From an uncultured Pseudomonadales bacterium (GTDB lineage: Bacteria; Patescibacteriota; Microgenomatia; UBA1400; Chazhemtobacteraceae), in the NCBI GenBank assembly GCA_964618725.1, contig CAZUBK010000001.1:260908-324907 (forward strand): a stretch of DNA of 64,000 nucleotides, written 5' to 3'. Shown here piece after piece: positions 1-37,608 of this stretch. Every line of letters begins with the position of its first letter. Position 1 is the stretch's first letter. A program made the translations under genes and the position numbers. Below the pieces are notes generated by a model. The model was given only the letters and a program-made list of their open reading frames with translations, was not told the DNA's origin and did not search any database.

Positions 1-2081
1 ACAAGTAGTGCGTTGGCGTCGGTTGAGACCTGAAGCTTAACTTTATTTGGCACGTGGCTCAATACCTCCACCCGGCAATCCTTACAAGGACTGATCGGAA
101 ATGTAAGTTCTTCAGAAAGAATGGCGGTGGTCCTGGGATCAAGATCCAAAGAACGAAGCTTTTTGTCTAGATCTTCATTCGAATTGGCGATTTGATAATT
201 AGAGGCAAAATAGGCGCGATCTTTGTAGGTAGGACTTTGATAAACGACAACTGAGCCATCACGAAAGACTTCTTGGTATCTGTGTTTTTCAAGAATTGGC
301 AGGTCCATATCAGCACGACCAGAGAGGCCCTCTTTGAGGGTAACGAAATACTTAACATTTAGGGCGTCTAAGTAACGGGGGTCAAAGTTCTCTAGTTCAC
401 TGTAGCGACTGGGTTTGTTGAGGAAGCTAGTTTGATTAATGACATTGAAGAGGCGATTATAGTTAAGGAGTCGAAGTGGATCGTAGCCCTCAACGGCTTC
501 TAGACCGTAATAGCTCCAAGTGTTGGGAGGAAGGAGGTTGTCTTTGGTTCTGGCAATGCGAAAAACACCATTTTGACTTTTGAGAAAGTCAATGACCGGA
601 GTAGTGGGGAAAACAATCCGGGCGGGAACCGAAGGATTGTACTTGCGAAAATATCGACCGAAGTCGCCCATAAAAAGTAAGGGGATAATGAAAAGAAGAA
701 TGAAAGGGCGACGATGAAAGAGATTAAGGGAAATGAGGAAGGTAGCGAGTAGAGCGACTGGAATGGCGGAATTACGTAAACTAGTTGTCTGAAACTGAAG
801 GGGGGTAAACTTGATGGCAAGAAGAGTGATGACAATGAGAAGAAGACTGGAAATAGTAGATGCTTTTATGTTTAGTTTTTTGTTTCTTAATTCCTCAAGA
901 CTACCGGCAACTAAGACAGCGGCGGAGAGGCCGGTGAGGAAAAAGAGACGACTGGCGGAGGAATAAGTTAAAAGGGGGAGGGGGAGACTAAAGATGAAAC
1001 GGGAGACGGGACTATTAACTGCCAGGAAAAGGCTGACAAAGAAGAGGACAAAAAAGAAGTGGTATTTTTTTCTGCTGTGAGTAAAGAAAAGACTGGTTAT
1101 GAGGGGGAGGGATATGGTACCCAGAAAACTGCTGTACTCGTGATATGAAACAGAACTCCAGTGGTTGTAAGTAGAGGGAGACCCAAAGAAGTCGGGAGCC
1201 CAGAGACGAATTAACTCGATAACAGGACTAAGACCATAATTGAAATCTGAGGCATACTTTTCTAGTTCGCGAATTGAAACCTGATAGAACTCAAAAGTGG
1301 GGAGTAATTGGATGGCAGAAAGACCAAGCCCTAGAAGTAAGGAGAAGGCTACTAACAAAGTTTGTTTGGTGAGGTTAAACTGTTGGCGACTGAGAGCAAA
1401 AAGGGGAAGAATGACTCCCGCATAGGTAAGAAGTTGGGCGTGGCCAGCAAAGATGAGAGAGGTGAAAGAAAGAGAAAGTAAGGCAAGAAGATAGAATTTT
1501 TTCTCTGTGAGAAAGCGATCGATGAGATAGAGGCAGAGAGGAATAAGACTGGCGGCCCAGACACCGGTGCCAAACTCAAACCAAGTGGTCATCGGGCCGG
1601 CAAAGGCAAAGATTAGTGAGCCGGTGAATTTAGCAAAGCTTGATTTGAGAAGCCGACCCAAGAAAAGGTACATAAAAAGAAAGGCAGAAACAGTGGAGGC
1701 GATAAGATACAAATTCCAACCAGTGAACTTAGGTAAGAGCAGAAAGAGGTTGCCCGGAAAGAAAACGCCCCAATGAATACTGGGCAGAAGTGGGGTACCG
1801 GAAAAAGAGAGCTTGTTCCAGAGCGGCACTATTCCCTGACGCCAGAGATCGATTGTTTGATGTTTCCAGATGAAGAATTGAGAAAAGACATCGGAAATGG
1901 GCGGGTTCTTGACAGGGACGCCAGTGGGATAATCCCATTTAGAATCGAGCCAGGGATAGTAGCTGCCGACAAGGGTATCGGCGGGGACAAGAACCTGGTT
2001 TTGAAAGAGTGCTTCCCGAAAAAGGATGATGAGGAAAAGAATAAACCAGAAAAGTGGATGGGTAAGTATCTTCTTAATCAC
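1..2081 (-). CDS. Large polytopic membrane protein, putative GT-C-like glycosyltransferase (paralog of 3605..5875); C-terminus runs off the window start; GTG start
   Basis: I translated the minus-strand frame whose codons end at coordinates of the form 3n+2 by hand. It is open from a GTG at 2081 (VIKKILTHPLFWFILFLIILF...IPADTLVGSYYPWLDSKWDYPTGVPVKNPPISDV) down to base 1 (bases 1-300 give ...PILEKHRYQEVFRDGSVVVYQSPTYKDRAYFAS... with no stop). The N-terminus is clearly homologous to 3605..5875 (IPADITIGAYFPWLDYKWGTVTGIPVKNSLPSDV). The ORF track shows nothing here because the frame has no stop inside the window. Confidence 0.6.
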   Translation of the reverse strand, partial: MIKKILTHPLFWFILFLIILFREALFQNQVLVPADTLVGSYYPWLDSKWDYPTGVPVKNPPISDVFSQFFIWKHQTIDLWRQGIVPLWNKLSFSGTPLLPSIHWGVFFPGNLFLLLPKFTGWNLYLIASTVSAFLFMYLFLGRLLKSSFAKFTGSLIFAFAGPMTTWFEFGTGVWAASLIPLCLYLIDRFLTEKKFYLLALLSLSFTSLIFAGHAQLLTYAGVILPLFALSRQQFNLTKQTLLVAFSLLLGLGLSAIQLLPTFEFYQVSIRELEKYASDFNYGLSPVIELIRLWAPDFFGSPSTYNHWSSVSYHEYSSFLGTISLPLITSLFFTHSRKKYHFFFVLFFVSLFLAVNSPVSRFIFSLPLPLLTYSSASRLFFLTGLSAAVLVAGSLEELRNKKLNIKASTISSLLLIVITLLAIKFTPLQFQTTSLRNSAIPVALLATFLISLNLFHRRPFILLFIIPLLFMGDFGRYFRKYNPSVPARIVFPTTPVIDFLKSQNGVFRIARTKDNLLPPNTWSYYGLEAVEGYDPLRLLNYNRLFNVINQTSFLNKPSRYSELENFDPRYLDALNVKYFVTLKEGLSGRADMDLPILEKHRYQEVFRDGSVVVYQSPTYKDRAYFASNYQIANSNEDLDKKLRSLDLDPRTTAILSEELTFPISPCKDCRVEVLSHVPNKVKLQVSTDANALL

Positions 2082-3612
2082 AGGTAGCTCTTTTCTCTAC
2101 AGTAATTTGAAACGGGAAGTCTTTTGTTTCAAGTAGACAAAGTTTCTGAAACTGCTTTAACCAATTAGCTCTTGAGTATAGCTGGTGGTCCCCTGGTTCG
2201 AATATCAGGAAAGTAAGACTTTGATTGCCTAGTGATTTTATCTTAGTCCAGTAACGGTCGTTGTCAGGAAGGTAGTGAGGAGAGTCTGGTTGGATAGCGA
2301 CGGAACTTGGTTGATATCGATATGTTTTGGTGCCATACCACCAGAAGAGATAATGAAAGGGACGATCTTCAACCGCAGGGGAATATGTGTAGACACGAAA
2401 ACCCTCTCTGGCCGCCTCTTTATAGATCCAGTCAATAATACTCAGGCGATTACTGAGATTGCTTGGATTATCTGATTGTCTTGAGGCATTCTTGATGAAG
2501 TTAAGTTGCCAGTTACCTCCCCAGATGAGAAAAGTAGACAGGAAGATGATGGTGAGTATTTTTGACCAAAGATGGTATTGGAAAAGAAGATAGAGAAAGA
2601 GGGAGAGAATAAAGATATAGATAACGCCTAGGCTGTGAAGATACCAGAGATAGATACGGAAAGGGTAAATAAGATAAAAGATAAAAGCGAGAGGGTAGAA
2701 GGCAAGAAGTGAGAGAAAGATTGTCCGTAAGTATGGTGAAACTTGCTTGAGATGAAGGCAAATAAAAACAGAGGCGGTGACTAAAATAGTAGCAACTATT
2801 ATCCAAGGTAAGCCAAAAGTAAACCCAAGGGAAGTTGTGAAATTATTAAGTAAATCGATAAACTTCTCGCTAAGAGTGAGAGGATTGGTGAGATAGTCTT
2901 GTTGACCGGTGAGTTGGTTGAGGACTAACTTAGACATGGAGAACTGATGACGGAACTCGTAAATGATTTGAGGAATTAAAGTGAGGAAAAGACCGAGGAG
3001 AAAGATAACGTATTGCTTAACTTTTTGTTGCTTAAGGAAGAAAGAGAAGAGAACAAGAGGAAGAAAGATTATGGCCATTGCGGCCTCTACCTGAAGACCA
3101 AAACCAACAAAAATGCCTAAAAAAAGAATGTTTCTTGGATGTGTTTTTGTAGTAATCTGGGGCAAAATCGTGAAGAGGATGAGAAAAAAGATAGGAAGTA
3201 GATTGGGATTGAGGGAATAATGAGTGGTGTGAAAGTAAATCGAAGCAAAGACAAACAAAAGGGCAAAAAAGAGATTGAAAGGGAAGAATTTCCTGTACTG
3301 CCAGAAGATGAAAACAGCGGCGGACAGATATGAAGCGATCAGCCAGATAACAGCGCTGGCCGGATCGCCTTGGCTGAGAAGAAAAGGGAGGGCATTGAAG
3401 TAATACCAGAAGGGGCCGACAAAAACGCCAGTCAGACCAGTCGTTGGCCCAACCAAAAGCGGGGTGTGACCGAAGACGAGCCGACGAAGATCAATAAGAT
3501 CTCTGGCTTGATCCCAGGTAAAGGCAAAGTTGTAGTTTTGGATGGCTAGTAAACGAAACAAGAGGCTGACAATTACGGCAAGGACGAAGAGATATAGATA
3601 TTTTTTAGGCAT
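2074..3612 (-). CDS. GT-C fold membrane glycosyltransferase, PMT_2/ArnT-like (GT39/GT83-like), member of a four-paralog set
   Basis: 512 aa with about 12 predicted TM helices. N-terminal motif WDQARDLIDLRRLVFGHTPLLVGPTTGLTGVFVGPFWYYF is shared with 5896..7248, 12402..13871 and 32278..33822. Confidence 0.7.
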   Translation of the reverse strand: MPKKYLYLFVLAVIVSLLFRLLAIQNYNFAFTWDQARDLIDLRRLVFGHTPLLVGPTTGLTGVFVGPFWYYFNALPFLLSQGDPASAVIWLIASYLSAAVFIFWQYRKFFPFNLFFALLFVFASIYFHTTHYSLNPNLLPIFFLILFTILPQITTKTHPRNILFLGIFVGFGLQVEAAMAIIFLPLVLFSFFLKQQKVKQYVIFLLGLFLTLIPQIIYEFRHQFSMSKLVLNQLTGQQDYLTNPLTLSEKFIDLLNNFTTSLGFTFGLPWIIVATILVTASVFICLHLKQVSPYLRTIFLSLLAFYPLAFIFYLIYPFRIYLWYLHSLGVIYIFILSLFLYLLFQYHLWSKILTIIFLSTFLIWGGNWQLNFIKNASRQSDNPSNLSNRLSIIDWIYKEAAREGFRVYTYSPAVEDRPFHYLFWWYGTKTYRYQPSSVAIQPDSPHYLPDNDRYWTKIKSLGNQSLTFLIFEPGDHQLYSRANWLKQFQKLCLLETKDFPFQITVEKRATCD

Positions 3613-5875
3613 GGTTTTTCCTTCTGAAGAGAATGAGAGCTAAAATAGTGAGTCCGGAGAAGAGGGTTGAAAGAAGTCCTACTGAGAAGGTGCGGGGGTT
3701 ATAAACAAGCTTGACTTTGTGAGAACCTGTAGAGATATCTGGCAAAGATATATATACGTTATTAGAGATACCAACAGGGTGAGGGCGTCCATCGACTTTA
3801 GCTTTCCAGGAGGGAGAGTAAGTAGTAGCAATGATTAACTGTGCGGATGAAGTACTGTTGACATTAATGTCAAAGTCACCGTTTAGATACTCCGTATAGT
3901 CTTTAATGGCAGTGATCCCTGACTTGTCTTGATACTTGAGATAAACGAGAGGAAGGCTTTTGATGTTTTCGAGAATTTGAACCGAACCATCAGAAAAAAC
4001 GGGTTTAAGATGAGGTAGCTGAAACTCGGTATGAATCTCGCCAGTAGGACTTGGGACTCCTTTGTCATACTTCTTTGCTAAGATGAAGCGGGTGGAAGTA
4101 GAGTTGAAATCAAAAGTATCGGGATAGGTGAGGATATTACCAACTCGACCGAGGGGAATATCTTGACCTTGAAGATGGCCTAAGAAAGAGGCATAGCGGG
4201 TGGAGTAGAGGGCCTCGTATCCGGCGGCAGATTTCAGATCATAGGGCATCCACATATTCATTGGAATGACATCGCCACCAGAGATGCGATCATTGCCGGC
4301 ATTTTGACGAAGGTAGTCAATAACAGGAGTAGAAGGAAAGATGTAGCTACGAGGAACAAAGCTTAGGTACTTTTTACCAAAAAGGAATAGATCACCAAAT
4401 TGAATGAAGATAAGGGCGAGACCGACGAGGAGAAGATACTTGTGGGTGAATTTATCGTTGAAGAAGCGTTTGAAGAAAAAAAGAAGGGCGGCGGCAAAAA
4501 TTACTAGAGTGGGAACAACGAGATTACGCAGGGTTGTCTTTTGGATGGTGGTAATGAGGGGTTCCAAATGGCGGACTTTGAGGTAGAGTGCGCCGGGAAC
4601 AAGCCAAAAGATCGCAAGAAGAAGGAGAAAAGCGAGGAAATAGAATAGCGAAGGCTTTTTTTGAGTCAGAAGATGATTTAGACCAATACTTGAGAGAACC
4701 GCTAGACAGAAAGTGAAGAGGGCCATAGCGCGGGCAGCAATGGCAGTACCGAAACCGGGGATGTTGTTTTCAAAAAGAAATTGAGAGAGAGGAGTCTTGA
4801 GAGAGAGAAGGAGGGCGAGGGCAAGGCCGAACCAAAAGACTGCAGTCTTACTATTTTTGGCTCGAAGGGAATAGAAGGCGAGAACTAGTGACAGGACTCC
4901 GGGATAGGTAGAGAAGTTGTCAAAGTAACCGACACCGGTATAGTTGAGAGTCGCTGGATTACCAAAGAAATTGGGTGATACTAAAGTCACCAAGTGTTTA
5001 AAGGGGAAGAAGCCAAAATTGGTAATGACAAGACTGCCGGTATCACTTAGGCGGGTTGAGGTCTTGAAGAGATCTATGAGAGGGAGAAGCTGAACGCCGG
5101 AGAAGGCAAGACCAAGGGCGGTGAATAGGGCGAGATCGATAAGTCTTTTGAGATTCGGGGAAGAGTAGAAAAGAGAAGATACCCCAACAAAGAGTAGGGT
5201 GTAGAGAACAAATTGGGGGTAACCGGCAAAGATCTGGAGTCCCAAGACTAGAGAATAAAGAGCGTAGTTTTTAACCTTAGGTTGGTCAAAACTCTTAAGG
5301 GCAGCAAAGATTACTAGAGGCATGAGGGCGAGGGAACGGCTTTGGGCATTGTATTCAACCCAGGTAGTAAAGAAACCGGAAAAGGAGAAGGTAACAGATC
5401 CAAACAAACTAGCTAGTTTACTTAGCTTTAGGTGTCTGGCGAGAAGATAGAAAGAAATCAAAGCGACGAGCGGTTGAAGAATAATTTGGATTGACCAACC
5501 GGAGACAAAGTCGGTAAAAAGATAGACGACATTAAGCGGATCAAAGATGGCATTGAGATTAGTTTGGAAGAGTTCGGTACCTGAGAGAACAAATTTATTC
5601 CAGTCAGGAAGGTGGCCGCTTAAGAGAAGCCTAATGGCGAGTGATTTGTTGGGGAAGGTCAGGGAGGGGACATCGGAGGGAAGTGAATTCTTGACGGGGA
5701 TGCCGGTGACTGTCCCCCACTTGTAGTCGAGCCAAGGGAAATATGCACCAATAGTGATATCAGCAGGAATGGGTATCAGACCCTTGAAGAAAAAGGGGTA
5801 GAAGAAAATGACGACGAGAATAACAAAAAAGGAGGGAATGAGAAGAGAAGCTAGTTTGAGAGGAAGGAATTTCAT
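3605..5875 (-). CDS. Large polytopic membrane protein (756 aa), putative GT-C-like glycosyltransferase with a C-terminal extracytoplasmic beta-rich domain
   Basis: Many TM helices across the first ~470 aa, then a soluble C-terminal region and a final TM. Paralog of the gene at 1..2081. Overlaps its neighbours by 8 nt. Confidence 0.65.
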   Translation of the reverse strand: MKFLPLKLASLLIPSFFVILVVIFFYPFFFKGLIPIPADITIGAYFPWLDYKWGTVTGIPVKNSLPSDVPSLTFPNKSLAIRLLLSGHLPDWNKFVLSGTELFQTNLNAIFDPLNVVYLFTDFVSGWSIQIILQPLVALISFYLLARHLKLSKLASLFGSVTFSFSGFFTTWVEYNAQSRSLALMPLVIFAALKSFDQPKVKNYALYSLVLGLQIFAGYPQFVLYTLLFVGVSSLFYSSPNLKRLIDLALFTALGLAFSGVQLLPLIDLFKTSTRLSDTGSLVITNFGFFPFKHLVTLVSPNFFGNPATLNYTGVGYFDNFSTYPGVLSLVLAFYSLRAKNSKTAVFWFGLALALLLSLKTPLSQFLFENNIPGFGTAIAARAMALFTFCLAVLSSIGLNHLLTQKKPSLFYFLAFLLLLAIFWLVPGALYLKVRHLEPLITTIQKTTLRNLVVPTLVIFAAALLFFFKRFFNDKFTHKYLLLVGLALIFIQFGDLFLFGKKYLSFVPRSYIFPSTPVIDYLRQNAGNDRISGGDVIPMNMWMPYDLKSAAGYEALYSTRYASFLGHLQGQDIPLGRVGNILTYPDTFDFNSTSTRFILAKKYDKGVPSPTGEIHTEFQLPHLKPVFSDGSVQILENIKSLPLVYLKYQDKSGITAIKDYTEYLNGDFDINVNSTSSAQLIIATTYSPSWKAKVDGRPHPVGISNNVYISLPDISTGSHKVKLVYNPRTFSVGLLSTLFSGLTILALILFRRKNHA

Positions 5876-5895: not shown

Positions 5896-7248
5896 TTATG
5901 GCTTGATCAAGGAGACACCAAAGACGCCAAAGGTTTGCATGGTTGAATTGTGTTTGGGATTACTCGAGTAACCGACAAAGTAGGAAGCATTATCGACAAA
6001 GGGAAGAGATTTATCTTCGTAGTATTCTCTTATGGTGCCAAAACCATAACCCTCTCCGAGGAGAAAGTCGTTGACTATGTTGGGCCGATTCGGTTTGGCG
6101 CTTTCTAGTATATAGAGCATGGCACTTTTCTTGTAAAAATAACTTTGACCATCAGTAAAGCGATTAAGATTGATTATCGAAGGGATAACGATGCTAAGCA
6201 TCAAGACTACGACGATGAGGCGTCCTATCTTTGAGCTAGAGAGAGAAAGGCCTAGGAGAATGAAAAGAGTGACAACGGCAGAGAGCTGATAGTATTCAGG
6301 CCAGAAGGACTGGGAATACAAGAAGAGGGCGATGATAGAGACATAAACGATGGCAACGAGCCAACGAAAAGACTTATCTTTGAGACTTCTTATGGTGAAG
6401 AAGAAAAGTAAGAGAGGAACCAAGACATATTTGTAAATGGCATGTTGATTGAGGGGGGGGAGGGCGAAAGAAAACTCGCGAGTTAGATTGCGAAAAGAAA
6501 AAAGAAACTTGTCGATTTGGGAAGTATTTGAAAGCGAATCTTGTTGAAAGAATCTAATGGCTCCCTGAAGGTTGACAAAGCTGTGCCGCAAATCGAAGAG
6601 GAGGAGAGGAAAGTATGAAGAGACAAAAGCAAGTGTAAGAAAGAAAAGACTTGAGAAGGAAAGCTCAATGCTCTTTCTATGGTGGAAGAGCCAAAATATA
6701 ATGAGGGGGACAAAGAAGATAATCTGAAAATGGAAATTGATTCCCAATCCAAGAAGAAAAGTGGCTAAAAGAGCGTGTTTGAGTTTTGGTTTTTTATGCA
6801 GTAATAATGAGATCAAACCAAGAACAAATAGGGGTATAAAAGTCACATTCCATGACATGCGATGAGAGAGAGGGGTCAGCCAGATCAGGGAAAAACAAAA
6901 GGCAGTTAGACTTGACTTGTGTTTAAGCAAGAAAAAAATACCAAGCGCAGTAAGAATATTGAAGAAACCAGCCATATAGGCACCAAAGAGGGGGTTGGCG
7001 CCAAAAAGTAAATAAAAGGGAAGCAAACAATAGTAGTACCAGGGGCCTAAATAGAAACCACTAGCGGAAACAACGCGGGGGCCGATAAGGATAGGCCGGC
7101 GGAGGTCGAGCATTTGTTTGATGGCCAAATAATCGCGTTCTTGATCATAGTTGTAGGAATATAGCTCTGATAGACGGAAAAAACTAAAGTAAAGTCCGGC
7201 TAAGAAGATAAGTGACAAGAAGAGGAAGTCAATCCGTTTAAGTTTCAT
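5896..7248 (-). CDS. GT-C fold membrane glycosyltransferase, PMT_2/ArnT-like paralog
   Basis: 450 aa polytopic protein. N-terminal YDQERDYLAIKQMLDLRRPILIGPRVVSASGFYLGPWYYY matches the paralog motif. Confidence 0.7.
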   Translation of the reverse strand: MKLKRIDFLFLSLIFLAGLYFSFFRLSELYSYNYDQERDYLAIKQMLDLRRPILIGPRVVSASGFYLGPWYYYCLLPFYLLFGANPLFGAYMAGFFNILTALGIFFLLKHKSSLTAFCFSLIWLTPLSHRMSWNVTFIPLFVLGLISLLLHKKPKLKHALLATFLLGLGINFHFQIIFFVPLIIFWLFHHRKSIELSFSSLFFLTLAFVSSYFPLLLFDLRHSFVNLQGAIRFFQQDSLSNTSQIDKFLFSFRNLTREFSFALPPLNQHAIYKYVLVPLLLFFFTIRSLKDKSFRWLVAIVYVSIIALFLYSQSFWPEYYQLSAVVTLFILLGLSLSSSKIGRLIVVVLMLSIVIPSIINLNRFTDGQSYFYKKSAMLYILESAKPNRPNIVNDFLLGEGYGFGTIREYYEDKSLPFVDNASYFVGYSSNPKHNSTMQTFGVFGVSLIKP

Positions 7249-9075: not shown

Positions 9076-9083
9076 TTTCTTGT

Positions 9084-9854: not shown

Positions 9855-9900
9855 GTTAGTTTGGGGGCTGGAAGAACCAGCCCCCTTTATGTGACTGGAT

Positions 9901-12397: not shown

Positions 12398-12401
12398 ATG
12401 A

Positions 12402-28990: not shown

Positions 28991-30532
28991 TTATTTAAGT
29001 ATCTGATAAAACTGGAGGGTCTCGTGAGTACCGTCGGGTCGGAGGGGCTTTTCATACTCTGCAATCAACTTGACGTGATTTTGTAGATCTATTGGAGGCA
29101 AGTTATTGCGACTTTGGTTAACCACAAGGTAGACTTCATTTTCGACAAGAGCGTTTCTCAGAGACTCGGGAATTCTTCCGATAGGTTGGCCGATACCAAG
29201 AATGACAATATTGGGATGTCCCTCGGTGTATATTTGCAGGCCATCGGGTAAGGTGCCAAAGAAGCCTTCGGTGCCGACGAGGATTTTTGTCGTTGAGGGA
29301 CGAGCTTTTTTAAGATACTGCGCGACTAGATCTTGACCATAGCCGGCGGTCCATTCTTGGAAGTAGCCGTATTTCATGTTTTGGGGAATGGGGGCAGCTG
29401 GTGGATTAGTCAACAAAAGCAAGTCTTTGTAGCTTGCAAAAAGCAGTATCAGAAGGAAGAGGCCTGAAACGACTTTCTTGAGCGATTTGTGTTTTAGTTC
29501 TTCGAGGGCCAAACCGATGATGATGAGAAGTGGAGGAATGGTGAAGAGAAAATAGCGTGAAGTATAGGCCTTGGCAATAGAGGCCTGAAAGAGAATGGGT
29601 AGAAGTGACCAAAGGAAGAGGGATAGTTTGTAACTGCGGAAGGGCTTGAGAAAAAGTGATAAAAGAAGGAGACCGATGGCTGGCCAAGTGATGAGAGAGA
29701 TAAGCCAGCTAATGGAGTCGGTAAAGTGACCGATGAAAGGATTAAGAGGGTGACTAAGCACCTCGGCGAAAGAGAAAACGTAATCCTTGTTTCTTATGGC
29801 GATCATTTGAAAGTTGGGACCAAGACGAAGGATGTTATACATGGCAAAAACGATCACTAAGGCCACTAACCAACCACCAAGTAGTTTGAGTGCGATTACA
29901 CGATTAATCTTCTTTAGATTGAGAAGGAGAAAGAGTTGGAGAGGGAGGAAATACCAACCGGGCGATTTGGTTAAGACGGCACCACCAAGAATCATACCAA
30001 GCAGCAGGGCCAGATCGAGTCGTTGGTAATGAACGAAAAGTAGCCCGAGGAAAAAAGACCAGATGGCGAACATAGAAAGGAGGGAGTCGGCAAGCGCCAT
30101 GCGATCAAAGAAGAGAGTGAAAGGGGTAAGAATGTACAAAAGCAAAACGACAAAAATGGCTTTTTTGGACCGACTAATGTACCAAGTCAGACTGCTCAGA
30201 CCTATAAGTGAACCAAGTCCGGCAAGAATCGAGGTAAAGCGACCAGCGACAAGAGGATCGGAAAAAAGCTTGAACATCGGGATGGTCAGCCACATGAAGA
30301 GGGGCTGCTTGCCATCAGAAAGGGGTAAGAAACGAAGGGTCGGTTCTGTTCTCATTACTTGAGACCAGCGAATATAGATGGCCTCATCGACAAAGACGGG
30401 AATGAGGGTGAGATGAAAGAGTCTGGTAACTAAGTAAAGAATGATTAAGGCGGAGAAAATTAAGAGAAACTTGAGTTGGAGTAGTTTTTTCAGGTCAGTG
30501 GCTAGATTATTCATATTTGCCAAGTAAATCAT
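28991..30532 (-). CDS. ArnT-like GT-C glycosyltransferase (GT83/GT39-like)
   Basis: FVDEAIYIRWSQVMR...LSDGKQPLFMWLTIPMF matches the ArnT pattern DE.RYAE...KPPLLYW. 513 aa, polytopic. Start abuts the stop of 27881..28990. Confidence 0.7.
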   Translation of the reverse strand: MIYLANMNNLATDLKKLLQLKFLLIFSALIILYLVTRLFHLTLIPVFVDEAIYIRWSQVMRTEPTLRFLPLSDGKQPLFMWLTIPMFKLFSDPLVAGRFTSILAGLGSLIGLSSLTWYISRSKKAIFVVLLLYILTPFTLFFDRMALADSLLSMFAIWSFFLGLLFVHYQRLDLALLLGMILGGAVLTKSPGWYFLPLQLFLLLNLKKINRVIALKLLGGWLVALVIVFAMYNILRLGPNFQMIAIRNKDYVFSFAEVLSHPLNPFIGHFTDSISWLISLITWPAIGLLLLSLFLKPFRSYKLSLFLWSLLPILFQASIAKAYTSRYFLFTIPPLLIIIGLALEELKHKSLKKVVSGLFLLILLFASYKDLLLLTNPPAAPIPQNMKYGYFQEWTAGYGQDLVAQYLKKARPSTTKILVGTEGFFGTLPDGLQIYTEGHPNIVILGIGQPIGRIPESLRNALVENEVYLVVNQSRNNLPPIDLQNHVKLIAEYEKPLRPDGTHETLQFYQILK

Positions 30533-31253
30533 TCTTCTTGACTCTTAAAATTTGCTTGAGCATGTCCACTGATTCTGTGAGGAAGTTTTTGTCCTTCCCT
30601 GTACTAACATCACGGTCTTTCCAATCAACTTTGACTTCCTTGAGTTTGTAGCCAGCTTTCTCAACAAGAAAAAGTAGCTCGACATCAAAGGCAGAGACGA
30701 CCCAACCCTTGGCTTGTTTTTGGCGAGATAGGATCTCAAGTTTGGGGAAAAGTTGCTTGGCGACTTTTGTCTTGAATGACTTGAAGCCACATTGGGTGTC
30801 AACAACAGGACGCAGGAGAAGAAAACGTCTAAAGGTGAGAAAAGAGAAGGCCATAATCTTCCTGATCATAGAAGCGTCGCGTTTGCTGCCACGAGAGCCG
30901 AAGACAACATCGAAGCCTTCCTCATACCCAGGGAGGAGTTTCTCTATTTCGGCTAACGGAGTGCTTTGGTCCATGTCGGTAAAAAGAACAATATCGTGTT
31001 TCGCCTTTTGGATGCCCGCCCAGACAGCGGCGGCCTTACCGCCATGCGGATTGTTCAAAACAGTAAAACCTTTATGTTTTTTGGCAAAATCTTCGGCAAG
31101 TTCTCGACTTCCATCACTACTACCGTCGTCGGAAATAATGACTTCCCAGGAGAAATTGGCTGTCTTCAAATATTGGTTGACTTGGTCGAGGACGCCGCGC
31201 TGCAGATTCTCTTTTTCGTTGTAGTTGGGGATCACAATAGAAACGGAAAGCAT
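30507..31253 (-). CDS. Polyprenyl-phosphate sugar synthase, GT2 (Dpm1/GtrB/ArnC-like)
   Basis: MLSVSIVIPNYNEKENL...VIISDDGSSDGS...FTDMDQSTP (DXD). 248 aa, soluble. Overlaps the downstream ArnT-like gene by 26 nt. Confidence 0.8.
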   Translation of the reverse strand: MLSVSIVIPNYNEKENLQRGVLDQVNQYLKTANFSWEVIISDDGSSDGSRELAEDFAKKHKGFTVLNNPHGGKAAAVWAGIQKAKHDIVLFTDMDQSTPLAEIEKLLPGYEEGFDVVFGSRGSKRDASMIRKIMAFSFLTFRRFLLLRPVVDTQCGFKSFKTKVAKQLFPKLEILSRQKQAKGWVVSAFDVELLFLVEKAGYKLKEVKVDWKDRDVSTGKDKNFLTESVDMLKQILRVKKNDLLGKYE

Positions 31254-31270: not shown

Positions 31271-32260
31271 TTAGAGCTTGCCTTGAGATTTGAGAAGATT
31301 GACCGTGTTGAGAAACTCTCGCTTGGCTTCTTGCAGAGTGCCCTGGAAACGAAACCCGGCGGAAGCCTTATGCCCACCACCACTTAAGCGTTGTGCAATT
31401 TGCTGGACATCGGTTTGTGGAAGCCGAGCACGAAGAGTCCCTCCCACGATGCCAGGTTTTTTTTCGACAAGAATGGCGCCAAACTTGGTGTCAGCGATCT
31501 GACCCAAGAACTGATTGGCGAAGAGGGCAATTTTAGTCGCAGGGTTAACCTGTTCCCATGTTTGTTGGTCAATGGCAAGATAGACAAAGTCTTGCTCTTC
31601 AGATAATTCGAGGTGATCAAGAAGAATCCCCCAGGACTGAAACTCGTAAAAAGGAATACTTCTCTGCAGCTGAACCAGGCATAATTGATAGTCACCACCC
31701 TTTTTAATTAGTTCGGAAACAATTGTGAATATTTTGGCATTAGTATTGAAGTTCTGAAAACAACCAGTATCGCCTAAGATACCAAAGAGTAGACAAGTGG
31801 CAATATCCTTACTGATACCGATATTGAGTTTTTGAATGAGATGAAAGATCATCTCCGCCGTTGAAGAAGCATCTATCTCAGACCAGGTGACTTGTCCGAG
31901 AATAGCGGGATCGAGGTGATGATCGACAACTAGAATGGGTTGGGGAAAGACCGGCACTGGAGTACTGCGGGTAAGGAGACCGAAGATAGGGGTGTCGAGA
32001 GCGAGATAGTAGTCGTGAGGGAAGGTAGCCAGAGCCTCGGACAATGGCATTTGTTTGACTGACTCAATACCGGGCAGGAAAGTAGCAAATTCGGGAATCT
32101 CATCTTCGCAGAAGACTTCCATTACCTTACCCTCTGATTCTAGAGCTAGTCTGAGAGCAAGAGCAGAACCGATGGTGTCGGCATCAGGGCTTAGGTGAAT
32201 GTGGGCCAAGAAACTGGCTGAGCTATTGACTTTGGAAAGGAGTGGCTTGGGGATACGCAT
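31271..32260 (-). CDS. nrnA: DHH-family phosphoesterase (NrnA-like oligoribonuclease / pAp phosphatase)
   Basis: HLSPDADTIGSALAL (DHH motif I/II region), ILVVDHHLDP (DHH motif III), and a C-terminal DHHA1-like GGGH motif (LSGGGHKASAGF). Confidence 0.7.
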   Translation of the reverse strand: MRIPKPLLSKVNSSASFLAHIHLSPDADTIGSALALRLALESEGKVMEVFCEDEIPEFATFLPGIESVKQMPLSEALATFPHDYYLALDTPIFGLLTRSTPVPVFPQPILVVDHHLDPAILGQVTWSEIDASSTAEMIFHLIQKLNIGISKDIATCLLFGILGDTGCFQNFNTNAKIFTIVSELIKKGGDYQLCLVQLQRSIPFYEFQSWGILLDHLELSEEQDFVYLAIDQQTWEQVNPATKIALFANQFLGQIADTKFGAILVEKKPGIVGGTLRARLPQTDVQQIAQRLSGGGHKASAGFRFQGTLQEAKREFLNTVNLLKSQGKL

Positions 32261-32277: not shown

Positions 32278-33822
32278 CTATTTCGTATGTACCATCTTGT
32301 AGATCTTGATCGAATCGATTTGCCACGCTTGGACGATGGTGGAGGGACCAAAGACGGCGATTTGCCACTGCGAGTTGCCCTCAGGTTGACATTTATCACC
32401 GTCTTCGCAGACAACAAAGATCTGGTCAACGACTCGCTCTTCGCCCCTGATCATACGGGCCTTCTTGTTTTCGAGAAAATAGCGATATGATTCATCATAG
32501 TTTTGCTTGGCAATCAGGCCGAAGTTGAAGTCTTGCTCATTAGACTCTTTGATGATCAAATCAACGACCTTCTCAGTTCTTTGGAGTTGGCGATTGGGTT
32601 CTTGTTTAAGAGGGGAGTAATAAACGGCGTGATAGAGAAGGCAACCTAAAAAGACGATGGATAGGGCCTTGAAAAGGAAATGCTTTTGCTGCCAGAGAAA
32701 GGCGAGGAGGAAGCCGACGAGAAGGTAGACAGCGGGAAAAAGAAAACCAAAGTAATGGGCGTAGATGTGTTGCTTGTAGATTCCAAGACCCAAAATGGCG
32801 AAACCAATCCAAGTGAGAAGTAGAATCAGAGCTGGGTCTTTTTTGGTTTTAAGATCTTTGAGGGAGATCTTGAACTTGCCAAAAAAAGCCCAAAAGAAGG
32901 TGATGGCAATAATTAGGGCGGTCAGGGAGGAATAAATGAGTTGACGACCCAAAAGTAGCTCAGCAACAATGGATTGAATGGCTGGGAGGAAGCGATCGGA
33001 ACGGGCGGGATTAAGATTAACGGTGGTCTGGCGGTTCCCGAAAAAGGCCTTAAAGGCATTGAGATTCTGACCACTATGCTTGAGATCAAAAAGAACAAGG
33101 GGTGACATTAAGACTAAGAAAGAGATTAGGGCGATTGCGGTGGAGACAAGGAGAGATTTTTTTGAAATAACACTTGCCCGAGCTTGCCTAAAGGTGAGAA
33201 ACCAGAAAACAACAAGAGTGGGAATGAGCAAGAGACCTAGGTAGTGCATCTGAAGGGCAAAGGCTAAAGAAGTGCCTACAATGGGCAGCCAGCGAAAATT
33301 CTTGTTTTGCCAGACTTGCCAGATACCCCAAATACATAGAAGAGAAAAGAAAGGCATAGGGTTAGGATTCCAAGAAGCACGACCATAAATGATGGCAACA
33401 GGAGAAATGGCAAAAAGAAAAGCTGCAAGTAGACCAGTGAGGGGATTAAACCAAGTGCGACCAACCCACCAGGCGAAGAGAACGGTGACAGTGCTCAAAA
33501 AGGCAATCATAATCGCCGGACCAACGGGACTAAGTCCTGAGAACCAAAGGGCAGGGGCCATCATGTAGTAGTAGAGAGGGCCAAGATACATATTGCCAAT
33601 GGAAGTCATGGGGCCGATAAAAACCAGGTCTCCTTTGGTGATTAGGTCTCTAACGATTCGAACATCGCGACCTTCGTCGCCAAGGAAAGTCAGATACCCA
33701 TCAATCTTCCAGAGACGAAGGGCGAGGGCGAGAAAGAAGATAAAAAAGATAGTGATCAGCTCAAGTCGGTGTTGGTTGAGGAACTTGAAAATACTTTTCA
33801 TGCCAGATTGAGGTGATACCAA
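32278..33822 (-). CDS. GT-C fold membrane glycosyltransferase, PMT_2/ArnT-like paralog
   Basis: LGDEGRDVRIVRDLITKGDLVFIGPMTSIGNMYLGPLYYY. 514 aa, polytopic. Confidence 0.7.
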   Translation of the reverse strand: MVSPQSGMKSIFKFLNQHRLELITIFFIFFLALALRLWKIDGYLTFLGDEGRDVRIVRDLITKGDLVFIGPMTSIGNMYLGPLYYYMMAPALWFSGLSPVGPAIMIAFLSTVTVLFAWWVGRTWFNPLTGLLAAFLFAISPVAIIYGRASWNPNPMPFFSLLCIWGIWQVWQNKNFRWLPIVGTSLAFALQMHYLGLLLIPTLVVFWFLTFRQARASVISKKSLLVSTAIALISFLVLMSPLVLFDLKHSGQNLNAFKAFFGNRQTTVNLNPARSDRFLPAIQSIVAELLLGRQLIYSSLTALIIAITFFWAFFGKFKISLKDLKTKKDPALILLLTWIGFAILGLGIYKQHIYAHYFGFLFPAVYLLVGFLLAFLWQQKHFLFKALSIVFLGCLLYHAVYYSPLKQEPNRQLQRTEKVVDLIIKESNEQDFNFGLIAKQNYDESYRYFLENKKARMIRGEERVVDQIFVVCEDGDKCQPEGNSQWQIAVFGPSTIVQAWQIDSIKIYKMVHTK

Positions 33823-34499
33823 AGTTTAAGTGACTCTTTGAAGGCACGGAGGATGACTTTGAAGTTGGCGCCTGTCTGGGTGCCAGCAGTGCGGGGGTAG
33901 TGGTGGACACCGATTTGCTTGAGGCGAAAGCCCTTTTGTTTGACTTTAATGAGAAACTCAGCAGAGGTAAGAGCAGACTCAGTCTTAAGATCAATCTCAT
34001 CTATGACCTGTTTTTTGATGATCTTAAAGGCACAGTCAATATCTTTGACCCAGAGGCCAAAGAGGAAATAGATCCAAAGCTTCCAGATGAAGGCATTAAG
34101 GGAGCGAAGGAAGCTGTCTTGACGCTTGATTCTGTAACCAATGACTAGATCGTATTTGGAGAGATGGGGGCTAAGCTTCTTGATCTCGGAATAGTCGAAT
34201 TGACCATCGGAGTCGATAAAAGAGACAAACTCGTGTTGGCTTCCATAAAGACCAGTCTTAAAGGCGCCACCGTAACCCTTATTTGGTTTATGTTGAATCA
34301 GACGAATATGCTTGTTCTTAACCATCAATCCTTTGACAATCTTGGCGGTATCGTCTTTGCTACCATCGTCAACAACTAAGATCTCGTATTCATTAGCAAC
34401 ATCTTTGAGGACTTTATCGGCGTCTGTGACAGTCTTGGTAATATTGGCTGCTTCATTGTAGGCGGGGAGAAACAAACTAAGGGAAGACAGTTTTGACAT
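33798..34499 (-). CDS. Polyprenyl-phosphate sugar synthase, GT2 (Dpm1/GtrB/ArnC-like)
   Basis: LSLFLPAYNEAANI...ILVVDDGSKDDT...FIDSDGQF. 233 aa. Overlaps the downstream GT-C gene by 25 nt, the classic ArnC-ArnT / GtrB-GtrC arrangement. Confidence 0.8.
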   Translation of the reverse strand: MSKLSSLSLFLPAYNEAANITKTVTDADKVLKDVANEYEILVVDDGSKDDTAKIVKGLMVKNKHIRLIQHKPNKGYGGAFKTGLYGSQHEFVSFIDSDGQFDYSEIKKLSPHLSKYDLVIGYRIKRQDSFLRSLNAFIWKLWIYFLFGLWVKDIDCAFKIIKKQVIDEIDLKTESALTSAEFLIKVKQKGFRLKQIGVHHYPRTAGTQTGANFKVILRAFKESLKLWYHLNLA

Positions 34500-35662
34500 A
34501 CGGCTATGATAGCATTAAGACTATGAAGCGCTTCGTTGGGATTTTAGGGTTGGTTGTGGCATCAGCGGTGGTTTTTTGGTTGCCGTTTGTGGCTAAAGTG
34601 AATAGCCTTCCGGGATGGGGGATAAACTTTTCTCCCGGGATGGAGAAGGTGTTTGCTAATTTTGACGGACCAAATTACTTAATCGTGGCAAAGAGCTGGT
34701 ATGACAAATCTTTTATTGGCCATACATTCTCTAATCCACTCCCTTTAGAGTATTATCCCGCTCATTTACCATTATACCCCTTTCTTGTTTGGCTGGCTGA
34801 CGTGGTGTTGCCTGGGACATGGGCGATGCTACTGGTTACCCTTGTTGGTTCGATCCTGATGTTTGGTATGTTTTTTATTTTTGTAAAAGAGGTCGTTAGT
34901 GAGAAGACAGCCTGGTGGCTTAGCTTAACACTATTAGTATTGCCAGCCAGACTACTAACAGTGCGAATGGTTGGGTCTCCGGAGCCTTGGTTTATTTTCT
35001 TTGTCTTGGCGACGCTATATCTATACCGGAAAGAGAAATATCTTTTGGCTGGAATAGCGGGAGTAGCAGCGCAATGGACAAAGAGTCCGGCGATTTTGCT
35101 TTTTGTGGGTCTTTGCCTGTATCACTGTTATCGATTTAGAGATAGCTTGTTTAGTGCGTCGAGCTGGAAGCAAATGCTCAAATCCTGGCCGATTCTATTA
35201 ATGCCATTAAGTGTATTGCCTTTGTTTTATTTCTATCAAGTTAGAACGGGCGACTTTTGGGCGTATTTTAATAGTGGAGATAATTTTCATTTGTTTTTTC
35301 CACCCTTCAGCATCTTTTCGCCCAAGGGACAGTTTTGGACGGGCGAGTTCTGGCTTGAGGAAATTGTTTGGATCTGGCTGGTCTATGGAATGGGGGTATT
35401 GAGGCTCTGGAAGAAGGACCTTAGGCTGGAGGCAATATTCGCTGGAGTCTTTTTCTTTTCGACCTTATTTGTCGCCCACCGCGACATAGCGCGCTATATT
35501 CTTCCCATCGCTCCATTAGTGCTACTGGGTTGGAAGGAAATTATTGTAAGTAAAGAGTTTCGATGGCTGCTACTCTTGATGATTATCCCGGTGTATCTCT
35601 TCTCCTGGAACTTTGTTTTGAATAACGTAGCTCCAGTAGCTGACTGGACACCGTATCTTTAA
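34493..35662 (+). CDS. Polytopic membrane protein (389 aa), putative GT-C-type mannosyltransferase-like
   Basis: About 10-11 TM helices with periplasmic-loop aromatic motifs. Divergent from the GT2 gene at 33798..34499. Confidence 0.55.
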   Translation: MTYGYDSIKTMKRFVGILGLVVASAVVFWLPFVAKVNSLPGWGINFSPGMEKVFANFDGPNYLIVAKSWYDKSFIGHTFSNPLPLEYYPAHLPLYPFLVWLADVVLPGTWAMLLVTLVGSILMFGMFFIFVKEVVSEKTAWWLSLTLLVLPARLLTVRMVGSPEPWFIFFVLATLYLYRKEKYLLAGIAGVAAQWTKSPAILLFVGLCLYHCYRFRDSLFSASSWKQMLKSWPILLMPLSVLPLFYFYQVRTGDFWAYFNSGDNFHLFFPPFSIFSPKGQFWTGEFWLEEIVWIWLVYGMGVLRLWKKDLRLEAIFAGVFFFSTLFVAHRDIARYILPIAPLVLLGWKEIIVSKEFRWLLLLMIIPVYLFSWNFVLNNVAPVADWTPYL

Positions 35663-36008: not shown

Positions 36009-36271
36009 TGGATTCATTCTACCTTGGTCTTCTCGTTGGTTTAATCTCGGTTGTGACCCTTGTGATCATCGCCGCCTGTGGGATACTTTTGTTCCCAAGC
36101 CAGTTAAAGTCTGCACTCCTTGGTGGATTGCTTGGTGCACTGATTGGCACACTGACTGGTTTAATTGGGGGTGCCTTCGTTAACTGGGAATTGAGTTTCC
36201 TCTGGGGTACTGTACTTGGCGGAGCTGGCTTAGGTGCCTTGATTGGTTTGGTCGTCGAAACTATCGAGTGA
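36008..36271 (+). CDS. Small glycine-zipper membrane protein (~87 aa)
   Basis: The ATG at 36008 overlaps the upstream stop (the track start at 35996 is GTG). GxxxG-rich: GGLLGALIGTLTGLIGGAF...GGAGLGALIGLVV. Confidence 0.45.
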   Translation: MDSFYLGLLVGLISVVTLVIIAACGILLFPSQLKSALLGGLLGALIGTLTGLIGGAFVNWELSFLWGTVLGGAGLGALIGLVVETIE

Positions 36272-36305
36272 AGTATCTTCGGGACTAGGTAACTAGTCCC
36301 TTTTT

Positions 36306-37535
36306 TTACTTGTTTTTCCAAATGAAGAGGTGGTACATAGTCCAGTTGTAGGGAATGATAAGAAAGCCAATGGAAAGAATGAGCGAGCCTTGGCGAACCA
36401 AGGTGGTGTCACCGAAAAGAACGGTGGCGAGACCTATGACGATGAACTGAATAACAACAGCACCAAAGGAGGTGAGGTTGAACTGGAGGAGTTTGTAGAG
36501 GAAACGGAAGGGGTTGGTGATTCTCTCTGAAGCGAAAGTCCAGAAGTTATTTAAGATAAAATTGCTGATAATAGCCAGCTCAGCAGCCAGCGCCCCGGAC
36601 CATGAGTTCTCGTTGGCGAGAAGGGAGAGAACAGGGGTATCTTTGAACTGAGAGAAAGAAACAGCAAGAGATTCAACCAGACCGTCTTTGCGGAAGAGTT
36701 CAAGAGTGATGGCATTGATGAGGAAGCCAATAAAACCGACGGTGCCAAATTTGATGAACTTGGGGCTGGTGACTAGTTTAATAAAGGACAGGATGCGAAT
36801 CTTGAAGATGAAAATAAGGATGTGTTTGAGGTATTCCAAGCCGAGTTTGCTTTCGCCTTTGGTACGATCGACAAACTCAATAGGGACTTCGCCAATTTTG
36901 AAACCTTCGAGCATGGTGTTGTAGAGCTGGCCGATTTGCCAGGTATACCCGGAGAAGCCCTTGCTTTGTCGAAGAATTGGCTCGATTCTTTGATGAACTT
37001 GCTTTCTGATAGCACGGTATCCAGTAGTCCAGTCATGGATTCTAAAATTGGTGAGAATGAGTTGGATGAACTTGTTTCCCCCGACGCTGAGTAGTTTACG
37101 ATGGAAGCCCCAGGTAGAGGGAATGGAACCGCCGGGAATGTAACGACTGCCGAGAACGAGATCATAACCGACATCAATCTTCTTTAAGAATGAGGGGATG
37201 TGTTTGGGCTGATGTTGGCCATCGGCGTCAAATTCGAAGGCGACATCGGCCTTGAGATCATCGAAGGCGTAAGCCAAACCTTTAAGATATGCTCCACCAA
37301 GACCGGCCTTTTTCTTATTGAGAAGGAGGTGGAGATTCTTTTTCTTCTTTTGGAGCTTTTTTACAATTTCAGACGTCCCGTCAGGGGAGGTATCATCGAC
37401 TACCAGGATGTGCATGGAGTAGCGCTTAGGCACCTTATCAAAGACAGCCTCAAGCTTCTGGATTGTAGTCTCAATGTTACCAGCCTCGTTGTAGGTGGGA
37501 ATGACGATAACGGCGATTTTCTTGTCTTCGGACAT
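36306..37535 (-). CDS. Dolichyl/polyprenyl-phosphate mannose synthase-like GT2 fused to a GtrA-like C-terminal membrane domain
   Basis: IAVIVIPTYNEAGNI...ILVVDDTSPDGT...FDADGQH (GT2 and DXD), then four TM helices (FIKFGTVGFIGFLINAITLELF...), as in GtrA-containing Ppm1-type enzymes. The likely start is the ATG at 37535 (MSEDKK). The longer track ORF would overlap the 37557..37585 promoter. Confidence 0.75.
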   Translation of the reverse strand: MSEDKKIAVIVIPTYNEAGNIETTIQKLEAVFDKVPKRYSMHILVVDDTSPDGTSEIVKKLQKKKKNLHLLLNKKKAGLGGAYLKGLAYAFDDLKADVAFEFDADGQHQPKHIPSFLKKIDVGYDLVLGSRYIPGGSIPSTWGFHRKLLSVGGNKFIQLILTNFRIHDWTTGYRAIRKQVHQRIEPILRQSKGFSGYTWQIGQLYNTMLEGFKIGEVPIEFVDRTKGESKLGLEYLKHILIFIFKIRILSFIKLVTSPKFIKFGTVGFIGFLINAITLELFRKDGLVESLAVSFSQFKDTPVLSLLANENSWSGALAAELAIISNFILNNFWTFASERITNPFRFLYKLLQFNLTSFGAVVIQFIVIGLATVLFGDTTLVRQGSLILSIGFLIIPYNWTMYHLFIWKNK

Positions 37536-37556
37536 AGGGAAAGTATAACTCAAACA

Positions 37557-37585
37557 TTGACTTTTGGGGGTACTTGTGGTATTAT
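37557..37585 (+). promoter_or_regulatory. Sigma70-like promoter (TTGACT-17-TATTAT) driving the small-membrane-protein operon
   Basis: ttgact at 37557-37562, a 17-nt spacer, tattat at 37580-37585, then AAAGGAGGTG-N4-ATG at 37609. Confidence 0.55.
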
Positions 37586-37608
37586 GGGTCATCGAAAGGA
37601 GGTGGCCA

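Follow-up and report, generated by a model that had tools for sequence, protein, structure and literature searches.

A probable envelope-glycan assembly locus with eleven GT-C-type membrane proteins in a Microgenomates bacterium

Gene content of the cluster

The 64,000-nt stretch of contig CAZUBK010000001.1 analysed here (the window) comes from a bacterium of the Microgenomates (candidate phyla radiation, CPR/Patescibacteria) and carries a large cluster of glycosyltransferase (GT) genes in its left part. In the open reading frame (ORF) listing, positions 1-37,592 form a near-unbroken run of genes, almost all on the minus strand, and the cluster continues past the left end of the window, where it is cut. 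Genes described below are on the minus strand unless marked (+). The inventory of 1-37,600 comprises 11 GT-C-type polytopic membrane proteins, three GT2 enzymes resembling Dpm1, ArnC and GtrB, three further GT2 enzymes, one GT4 and one Wzx flippase. The initial annotation of this DNA had taken about 37 kb to be devoted nearly entirely to glycosylation; its parts list was recovered almost item by item, while the glycan-related share came to about 78% of the bases, with the GT-C genes alone at 50%. By type, the GT-Cs are four PMT_2-like paralogs, two YfhO-like proteins, one PTPS_related-like, one short PMT-like, one ArnT/PMT_2-like, one minimal protein of 379 aa and one 1046-aa fusion with a DUF3863-like barrel. 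Start and stop codons overlap as ATGA at four junctions, namely both GT2/GT-C pairs (where the GT-C start codon ATG shares bases with the GT2 stop codon TGA), Wzx/fusion and fusion/GT2a.

Proteins were assigned to the GT-C superfamily where a polytopic membrane module (8-13 transmembrane [TM] segments) was similar by hidden Markov model (HMM) or fold to known GT-C enzymes. This similarity came from own Pfam matches above cut-off in five proteins (PMT_2 in 12402-13871, 28991-30532 and 32278-33822, a marginal PMT match in 27881-28990, and YfhO in 3605-5875), from orthologs for 26125-27873, from paralogy for three, and from Foldseek for the fusion and the 379-aa protein, in agreement with the earlier count of at least 11. 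NCBIfam gave nothing for nine of the ten difficult proteins, the exception being 34493-35662 with a weak AZOBR_p60025-family match (37 bits, cut-off 150). In each of the eleven, a short basic N-terminus leads into TM1 and then into a long loop bearing a conserved D/E motif; the topology, read solely from hydropathy and the positive-inside rule, puts this motif in the first extracytoplasmic loop. The acidic motifs read in loop 1 are DQARD, DQERD, DEGRD, SDEELY...HPPLGK and VDEAIY...KQPLFMW, and the invariant loop-1 columns are D39/D68 in the YfhO-like family, D44/D45 in the PTPS_related-like family, D48 in the minimal GT-C and H521/D522 in the fusion.

The four PMT_2-like paralogs, noticed earlier for their RD...GP..YYY N-terminus, form one BLASTP family (mutual E 1e-6 to 5e-28 among the window proteins), and two of them score PMT_2 above the Pfam cut-off. 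They are 2074-3612 (DQARD...GPFWYY; 10 TM; no own Pfam match; E 5e-28 to 12402-13871 and 2e-15 to 32278-33822), 5896-7248 (DQERD...GPWYYY; 9 TM; E 7e-17 to 32278-33822), 12402-13871 (PF13231, 28.5 bits against a cut-off of 26.1) and 32278-33822 (DEGRD...GPLYYY; PF13231, 40.3 bits), the likely start of the last being the ATG at 33801. The two YfhO-like proteins, first seen as paralogous 750-aa proteins, are 31% identical (BLASTP E 3e-59). The YfhO profile (PF09586, 39.1 bits) aligned to the C-terminal part of 3605-5875 (756 aa) at profile positions 761-833 of 835 alone; 1-2096 is partial, with its C-terminus outside the window, and has nine predicted TM segments, a P-x-D motif in loop 1 and no own Pfam match. 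Across the YfhO-like family, PF09586 was matched by all 19 of 19 aligned members (best E 2e-26). Neither YfhO-like gene has a GT2 gene as its direct neighbour, and the window contains no GtcA gene. The PTPS_related-like protein 26125-27873 carries an HDD motif in loop 1, and its own matches lie below the cut-offs; among its orthologs PTPS_related (PF10131) was matched by 12 of 15 and PMT_2 (PF13231) by 9 of 15, both members of the Pfam GT-C clan.

The PMT-like DE...HPPLGK and ArnT-like DE...KQPLFMW motifs of the initial annotation were read directly in loop 1 of 27881-28990 and 28991-30532. The latter matches PMT_2 (PF13231, 33.1 bits). In the former (369 aa), the PF02366 match (25.9 bits against a cut-off of 22.7) spans profile positions 87-227 only; none of the eleven GT-Cs, this one included, has a Pfam match to MIR or PMT_4TMC. 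Membership of 27881-28990 in GT39 (true PMT) was rejected on its length, its marginal match to the PMT N-domain and the missing MIR and PMT_4TMC domains, and protein O-mannosylation, suggested earlier from its signature, is no more than a possibility.

The minimal GT-C is divergently transcribed and consists of the membrane module only. Its ORF is listed from 34493 (+), and the real start is probably at 34523, giving 379 aa (34523-35662, +). It has no own Pfam match, PMT was matched weakly by 7 of 13 orthologs, and some of its 1437 homologs are named 'Gpi18-like mannosyltransferase'. An AlphaFold2 (AF2) model made with database homologs (pLDDT 86.5, pTM 0.89) gave ArnT (5f15) as the best solved structure in Foldseek (E 8.7e-5, TM-score 0.59, about 17% identity in the structural alignment), followed by oligosaccharyltransferase (OST) subunits, AglB, Pmt4 and ALG9. 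Searches of PDB sequences (phmmer/profile) with the fusion, YfhO-like, PTPS_related-like and minimal GT-C families found no meaningful relative, and only fold comparison worked. Comparison of these four families by hhalign was insignificant (probability <4%), so they cannot be connected to one another by sequence.

Synthases, flippase and fusion protein

The three GT-C-associated GT2 enzymes match PF00535 at 88-100 bits and contain DxD motifs. The largest, 36306-37592, is a GT2 (PF00535, 99.9 bits) fused to a GtrA/DPMS TM domain (PF04138, 35.2 bits), as had been annotated, and is membrane-anchored through it; its best solved relative is the Pyrococcus furiosus DPMS 5mlz (E 1.2e-32 over residues 24-311, reaching into the TM region), and its architecture is that of archaeal dolichyl-phosphate-mannose synthase. 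The other two have no TM segments. For 33798-34499 (88.7 bits) the best solved relative is ArnC (E 1.2e-14), with GtrB and DPMS also matched, and for 30507-31253 (97.4 bits) the best are ArnC (E 7e-17), DPMS (3e-14) and GtrB (4e-13). Control GT2s compared in the same way gave GmaR for 17781-18695 and TarS and GlfT2, not ArnC, for 16861-17775; the likeness to DPMS, ArnC and GtrB is therefore confined to the three GT-C-associated enzymes, which are putative polyprenyl-phosphate sugar synthases and match the three Dpm1-like synthases named earlier.

Each soluble synthase overlaps a GT-C gene, 33798-34499 with 32278-33822 and 30507-31253 with 28991-30532. Both pairs had been noted before at these coordinates; the junctions are ATGA, and the pairing is conserved in relatives. 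TM-less forms of polyprenyl-phosphate GT2 enzymes are known, among them human DPM1 and the catalytic domain of Ppm1, and the two short GT2s resemble these. The lack of a TM helix together with the ATGA overlap with the start of the GT-C gene suggests that the GT-C partner anchors each short GT2 at the membrane.

The flippase, 21829-23316, was confirmed as Wzx/MOP-family by PF13440 (176.9 bits), PF01943 (74.2 bits) and 11 hydropathy peaks, where about 12 TM segments are expected, and its gene is ATGA-coupled to that of the fusion. The remaining sugar transferases are GT2a (17781-18695; PF00535, 68.8 bits; GmaR at E 8e-18; in 69 of 79 syntenic loci), ATGA-coupled to the fusion gene, GT2b (16861-17775; PF00535, 68.3 bits), the cytoplasmic GT2c (11597-12436; PF00535, 50.7 bits; in 64 of 79) and a cytoplasmic GT4 of the GT-B type (7245-8378; PF00534, 69.4 bits; in 58 of 79). 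These are four GT-A/GT-B enzymes, one fewer than the five initially counted. The 470-aa protein 9901-11313 was considered as the missing fifth and rejected, as it is no recognisable glycosyltransferase and has few homologs (5 in 5.8 billion proteins).

The 1046-aa fusion (18692-21832), recognised as a fusion from the outset, has no Pfam or NCBIfam match and was resolved by fold. Its AF2 model, built from 12 homologs, is of medium confidence (pLDDT 75.5, pTM 0.68) and shows a signal anchor, then, on the extracytoplasmic side at about residues 25-445, a (beta/alpha) barrel of the DUF3863-like type joined by a beta-sandwich, and lastly, at about 450-1046, the GT-C membrane module together with a small C-terminal domain. 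In Foldseek, the C-terminal 600 residues matched STT3 (E 3.7e-8, TM-score 0.46), AftA, DPY19 and PglB, with AftA 8if8 and Emb structures among the matches, and the N-terminal domain matched the 3lm3 'glycoside hydrolase/deacetylase' barrel (E 3.6e-7). The membrane module carries an invariant loop motif, G-x-x-x-H-D-A-x-x-H (H521, D522, H526). An OST identity of the STT3/PglB/AglB type was rejected, as there is no WWDYG (WWD-type) motif and the fold match is at the level of the GT-C core only.

An HMM search with the fusion family returned 2232 clusters at 50% identity with E <= 1e-3 and 1082 with E <= 1e-30. The family has fused members (about 1000-1160 aa), members that consist of the GT-C alone (about 550-680 aa) and members that consist of the N-domain alone (about 480-690 aa), and in Daviesbacteria-type loci the split N-domain and GT-C genes lie side by side. 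Close relatives of the fusion itself are few, the named ones being from Collierbacteria and Daviesbacteria. One database protein of 1639 aa (P0180) joins Wzx, N-domain and GT-C in a single chain, being 50% identical to the window Wzx over residues 9-490 and 30% to the GT-C of the fusion.

DUF3863 (PF12979, the 3lm3 family) was matched weakly, always below the Pfam threshold, by 7 of 28 relatives of the N-domain. The 597-aa protein 13868-15661, a paralog of this N-domain, has a signal-like N-terminus, is probably secreted and resembles the fusion over residues 8-345 (BLASTP E 4e-22). In an alignment of 25 sequences the conserved residues of the N-domain are E101, D159, R131, Y126 and Y170, with no conserved His, and 13868-15661 shares E101, D159, R131 and Y170. 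A deacetylase activity of the CE4 (NodB) type was rejected, there being no Asp-His-His triad and no Polysacc_deac_1 match. Because CE4-type His motifs are missing and these five residues are conserved, the N-domain is read as a carbohydrate-binding or hydrolase-like acceptor-handling domain and not as a metal-dependent deacetylase. The family has been known from 3lm3 (BDI_3119, 'putative glycoside hydrolase/deacetylase'), which the N-domain and 13868-15661 resemble by fold, whereas here the domain is fused or coupled to a GT-C; in the second such link, the stop of 13868-15661 overlaps the start of the PMT_2-like gene 12402-13871.

Conservation, host lineage and neighbouring genes

A scan of species-representative genomes, among which the window's own genome was not included, found 78 loci in records titled Collier-, Woese-, Davies- or Shapirobacteria, Microgenomates or Patescibacteria. 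Gene order was counted over 79 loci with ORFs labelled by their best window homolog. The recurrent string is the minimal GT-C (-), Dpm then PMT_2, Dpm then ArnT-like, one to four PTPS_related genes, Wzx then fusion, GT2a, GT2b, GT2c, GT4, PMT_2 and YfhO. The gene directly after Wzx was the fusion or its N-domain counterpart in 74 of 74 loci, the gene after the Dpm homolog of 30507-31253 was the ArnT-like one in 37 of 39, and the gene after the homolog of 33798-34499 was a PMT_2-like one in 20 of 25; gene overlaps across the loci are mostly 4-14 nt. One locus (L048) lies on a 615-kb record titled 'chromosome: 1', and the Collierbacteria loci end in a weak GT87/MptA_B-family gene. Dozens of locus-bearing records (L004-L081) are titled 'uncultured Pseudomonadales' or 'uncultured Gammaproteobacteria bacterium', and one each is titled Spirochaetia and Clostridia; such names do not fit the genes that the records contain and probably reflect placeholder or wrong taxonomy.

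Some genes inside the cluster are not part of this string. The cassette 8368-11313, made up of a PIG-L/LmbE-type de-N-acetylase (8368-9075; PF02585, 100.3 bits), an APH-like small-molecule kinase (9084-9854; PF01636, 29.9 bits) and the orphan 470-aa protein (9901-11313; no Pfam or NCBIfam match), is present in this genome's copy of the cluster only, and none of the syntenic loci in relatives has it. In a distant CPR contig (L083/L084, source name Katanobacteria) the three genes again form a group, away from any glycosylation cluster. The cassette looks like a mobile tailoring or resistance-like module. The slot between the two GT2/GT-C pairs holds a DHH/DHHA1 (NrnA-like) phosphoesterase here (31271-32260; PF01368 and PF02272), which is not a glycosylation enzyme, and an RNase_T (Orn-like) exonuclease in Collierbacteria (L001, 3919-4464); the two enzymes are unrelated and could be analogous nanoRNases. 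The segment 23397-25215 is not conserved in relatives and contains a HEAT-like ORF of 279 aa on the plus strand and short ORFs, one of which (24275-24520) resembles by eye the C-terminal part of an ATP-grasp enzyme; it is probably gene debris or an insertion separating two halves of the cluster. Just outside the cluster, 39809-42470 encodes a 628-aa protein with no Pfam match, kinase-like by eye at its N-terminus, and a weakly PP2C-like phosphatase. Further on, 50412-52157 encodes a 581-aa protein with a signal and an anchor and 23% Ser+Thr, a conceivable glycoprotein substrate.

The right end of the window, 54374-64000, is an unusual bacterial rRNA cluster on the minus strand. Its order is 16S (truncated at the edge of the window), tRNA-Ile, a set of three protein-coding genes, tRNA-Ala, 23S and 5S. 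The protein genes are CARDB-like (60851-62008), Dus (59724-60755) and of the metallo-beta-lactamase fold (59117-59752, +). The 23S match stops at 55949, beside a group I intron-like match at 55784-56039 (46.9 bits, cut-off 50), and an ORF for a LAGLIDADG endonuclease lies at 55153-55653; since the 23S match ends next to the intron-like match, the 3' exon of the 23S gene is probably located between the LAGLIDADG ORF and the 5S gene. The window has a GC content of 44.9%, with 26.2% G and 18.8% C on the plus strand. GC skew is positive (0.12-0.34) over genes of both orientations (for example 23397-24236 and 45822-46463 on the plus strand and 18692-21832 and 43746-44378 on the minus strand) and reversed only over the rRNA genes, and the excess of G over C is not simply a coding-strand effect.

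The placement of the organism in the Microgenomates builds on the relatives of its genes and on features in common with Ca. Chazhemtobacterium aquaticus Ch65, a lineage sister to Collierbacteria (PMC7143001). The same rRNA layout with an intron-borne LAGLIDADG gene has been described for Ch65, the GC content of the window also agrees with the account of Ch65, and a single-direction GC skew like the present one is on record for Collierbacteria and Beckwithbacteria as well as for Ch65 (PMC7143001). The pathway for peptidoglycan is reported to be essentially complete in Ch65, which has a sortase and lacks Gram-negative structure (PMC7143001); this lends no support to the wall-less organism suggested in the initial annotation.

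Function of the locus

The cluster is best read, with a probability of about 0.7, as an envelope-glycan assembly locus of a Microgenomates bacterium, organised as a translationally coupled operon for split-site glycosylation. This reading builds on the observed identities and folds of the parts, the topology signatures, the coupling of the genes and their conservation across species. On the cytoplasmic face, GT2a, GT2b, GT2c and GT4 would build a polyprenyl-diphosphate-linked oligosaccharide on a carrier primed by an enzyme encoded outside the window. Wzx would then move the oligosaccharide to the outer face, where the fusion GT-C, encoded directly downstream of wzx and bearing an outward-facing DUF3863-like barrel, may polymerise or transfer it. 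In parallel, the three Dpm1/ArnC/GtrB-like GT2s would charge polyprenyl phosphate with single sugars, and on the outside these lipid-phosphate sugars could serve the other ten GT-Cs for extending, branching or decorating the glycan, or for adding sugars to wall polymers or surface proteins. Conjectural in this scheme are its sequence of steps, the donors, the acceptor and the end product. We infer the use of polyprenyl-phosphate-linked donors by the GT-Cs solely from their adjacency to Dpm/ArnC/GtrB-like GT2 genes. Several such donors serving several extracytoplasmic transferases, as the initial annotation had proposed, is nevertheless the natural reading, given the coupled and conserved GT2/GT-C pairs and the likeness of the GT2s to DPMS, ArnC and GtrB. 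The logic of multi-component transmembrane glycosylation has been reviewed (PMC8035078, PMC5836110).

Several observations weigh against this interpretation. The sugar, acceptor and product are not readable from sequence, and a check of the window and of small ORFs in its gaps turned up neither a priming phosphoglycosyltransferase nor Wzy, an LCP ligase or a stand-alone GtrA. Neither of the two short Dpm-like GT2s contains a TM helix, in contrast to GtrB and ArnC. The fusion is modestly similar to STT3 and AftA (TM-score 0.46-0.54), a likeness that indicates the GT-C class and not a function. P0180, if genuine, ties flippase to transferase in the manner of a Rosetta stone; this one database entry could also be a frameshift or indel artefact at the ATGA junction.

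The idea of transporters, or of some other kind of membrane protein merely resembling GT-C, in a cluster not mainly concerned with glycosylation, is effectively refuted for the polytopic proteins. Five of the eleven (1-2096, 2074-3612, 5896-7248, 18692-21832 and 34523-35662) have no own Pfam or NCBIfam match, which would allow for it, but paralogy ties Pfam-negative proteins to PMT_2 or YfhO members, the acidic loop-1 motifs are conserved, and the top solved matches of the fusion and minimal GT-C models are exclusively GT-C enzymes, with transporters at a probability <0.25 throughout. The proteins do not fall into transporter families. Another alternative, which we regard as unlikely, is that the main job of the locus is O-glycosylation of proteins (surface or Ser/Thr-rich proteins, pilins or S-layer) with polyprenyl-phosphate hexoses, as in actinobacterial Ppm1/Pmt or the glycosylation of streptococcal Ser/Thr-rich proteins. 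The GT2/GT-C pairs would fit, as would the anchored surface protein with 23% Ser+Thr at 50412-52157, and streptococci are known for GT-C-dependent glycosylation of Ser/Thr-rich regions (PMC12041528). The Pfam PMT and PMT_2 matches and the DE...HPPLGK motif in 27881-28990 also favour it, but PMT_2 is a generic ArnT/PMT-type module that occurs in non-protein transferases, and the PMT-like protein is only 369 aa long, has no MIR or PMT_4TMC reported by Pfam and is present in just 7 of 79 loci. Wzx, four cytoplasmic GTs and eleven GT-Cs moreover far exceed the needs of single-sugar O-glycosylation.

The presence of two YfhO-family proteins and three Dpm/GtrB-like GT2s would also agree with modules that merely decorate a polymer made elsewhere (teichoic-acid-like or peptidoglycan), in the manner of CsbB/GtcA/YfhO or Gtr and with no de novo polymer assembly at this locus, and a role of YfhO in the glycosylation of lipoteichoic and wall teichoic acid is known (PMC5836110, PMC7389260). 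This is again a minor possibility: the strictly conserved core of Wzx, fusion, GT2a, GT2b, GT2c and GT4 resembles a repeat-unit or oligosaccharide pathway, there are no teichoic-acid genes in the window, and eleven GT-Cs are rarely required for decorating one polymer. Protein O-glycosylation and mere decoration are both possible, and less well supported than assembly of an envelope glycan.

The assembly reading can be set against known systems. In mycobacteria and corynebacteria, Ppm1 and GT-Cs (PimE, MptA/B/C, Emb, Aft, Pmt) build lipomannan, lipoarabinomannan and arabinogalactan from polyprenyl-phosphate monosaccharides. Common to that system and the present locus are many external GT-Cs for polymerising or branching an envelope glycan and a soluble Ppm1-like catalytic GT2 that would need a membrane partner; the genes here differ in forming one operon-like block in a genome that is probably <1 Mb, in having no sequence-level orthology to Emb, Aft or Mpt, and in belonging to an organism that is no actinobacterium. 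With GtrA/GtrB/GtrC of enterobacterial O-antigen and CsbB/GtcA/YfhO of Bacillus and Listeria teichoic acid (PMC8035078, PMC5836110, PMC7389260), the cluster shares a GT2 expected to charge polyprenyl phosphate and encoded beside an external GT-C, members of the YfhO family, and a GtrA-type TM domain, here fused to one GT2. Unlike in those systems, there are eleven GT-Cs for three synthases, two of which are TM-less and ATGA-coupled to a GT-C; no stand-alone GtrA/GtcA is present in the window, and the modules lie among the genes of a Wzx-type oligosaccharide pathway. ArnC/ArnT (GT2/GT83, for aminoarabinose on lipid A) provides the best solved relative of two GT2s, the best fold match of the minimal GT-C and the PMT_2 module found in 28991-30532, whereas no other arn genes lie in the window and lipid A would be an unexpected acceptor, as the lineage reportedly has no Gram-negative envelope (PMC7143001). 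The eukaryotic and archaeal lipid-linked-oligosaccharide pathway, with its cytosolic ALG GTs, RFT1, DPM1/ALG5, lumenal ALG3/9/12/6/8/10 and STT3/AglB (PMC10859629, PMC4973528), follows the same logic of parts: GT-A/GT-B enzymes inside, a MOP-type flippase candidate, Dpm1-like synthases and several GT-C extenders, and the flippase-adjacent GT-C here has STT3 chains as top fold matches. It differs in that the fusion has no WWDYG, there is no evidence of en bloc transfer to Asn, no relation to ALG families is seen at the level of sequence, and nothing in that pathway corresponds to the DUF3863-like domain.

No description of this locus was found in the literature searched, the sole related statement being that Ch65 has '29 genes of glycosyl transferases', given with no further analysis (PMC7143001). 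As every enzyme kind is known, no new principle is involved. What is new against that literature is the density, a single operon-like block with eleven GT-Cs where the whole genome is probably <1 Mb, the lineage-wide gene order, the coupled pairs of soluble synthase and GT-C, and two abundant GT-C families that have no Pfam model (the flippase-coupled DUF3863-GT-C fusion and the 379-aa minimal GT-C). A bolder and tentative proposal, to which we give a low probability, is that the locus is the bacterial counterpart in Microgenomates of the endoplasmic reticulum assembly line for lipid-linked oligosaccharides, with an inside GT2/GT4 core, a MOP flip, GT-C extension from three polyprenyl-phosphate sugars and a new family of flippase-coupled DUF3863-barrel-GT-C proteins that would polymerise or transfer en bloc; the resulting surface glycan would define the lineage, be essential even in genomes of 0.6 Mb and perhaps play a central part in host attachment.

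The CPR/Patescibacteria make up a large, mostly uncultured share of bacterial diversity, and their surface chemistry, the interface with the host, is essentially unknown. The locus would occupy roughly 4-5% of a 0.8-Mb genome of this type, and this share, together with the same gene order across Collier-, Woese-, Davies- and Shapirobacteria-type genomes, argues for a major and probably indispensable envelope glycan. The concrete targets that it offers are the three putative synthases of lipid-phosphate sugars, the GT2/GT-C pairs as possible complexes and two GT-C families that are absent from Pfam, and the minimal GT-C and the pairs of soluble synthase and GT-C could serve as compact models of GT-C mechanism.

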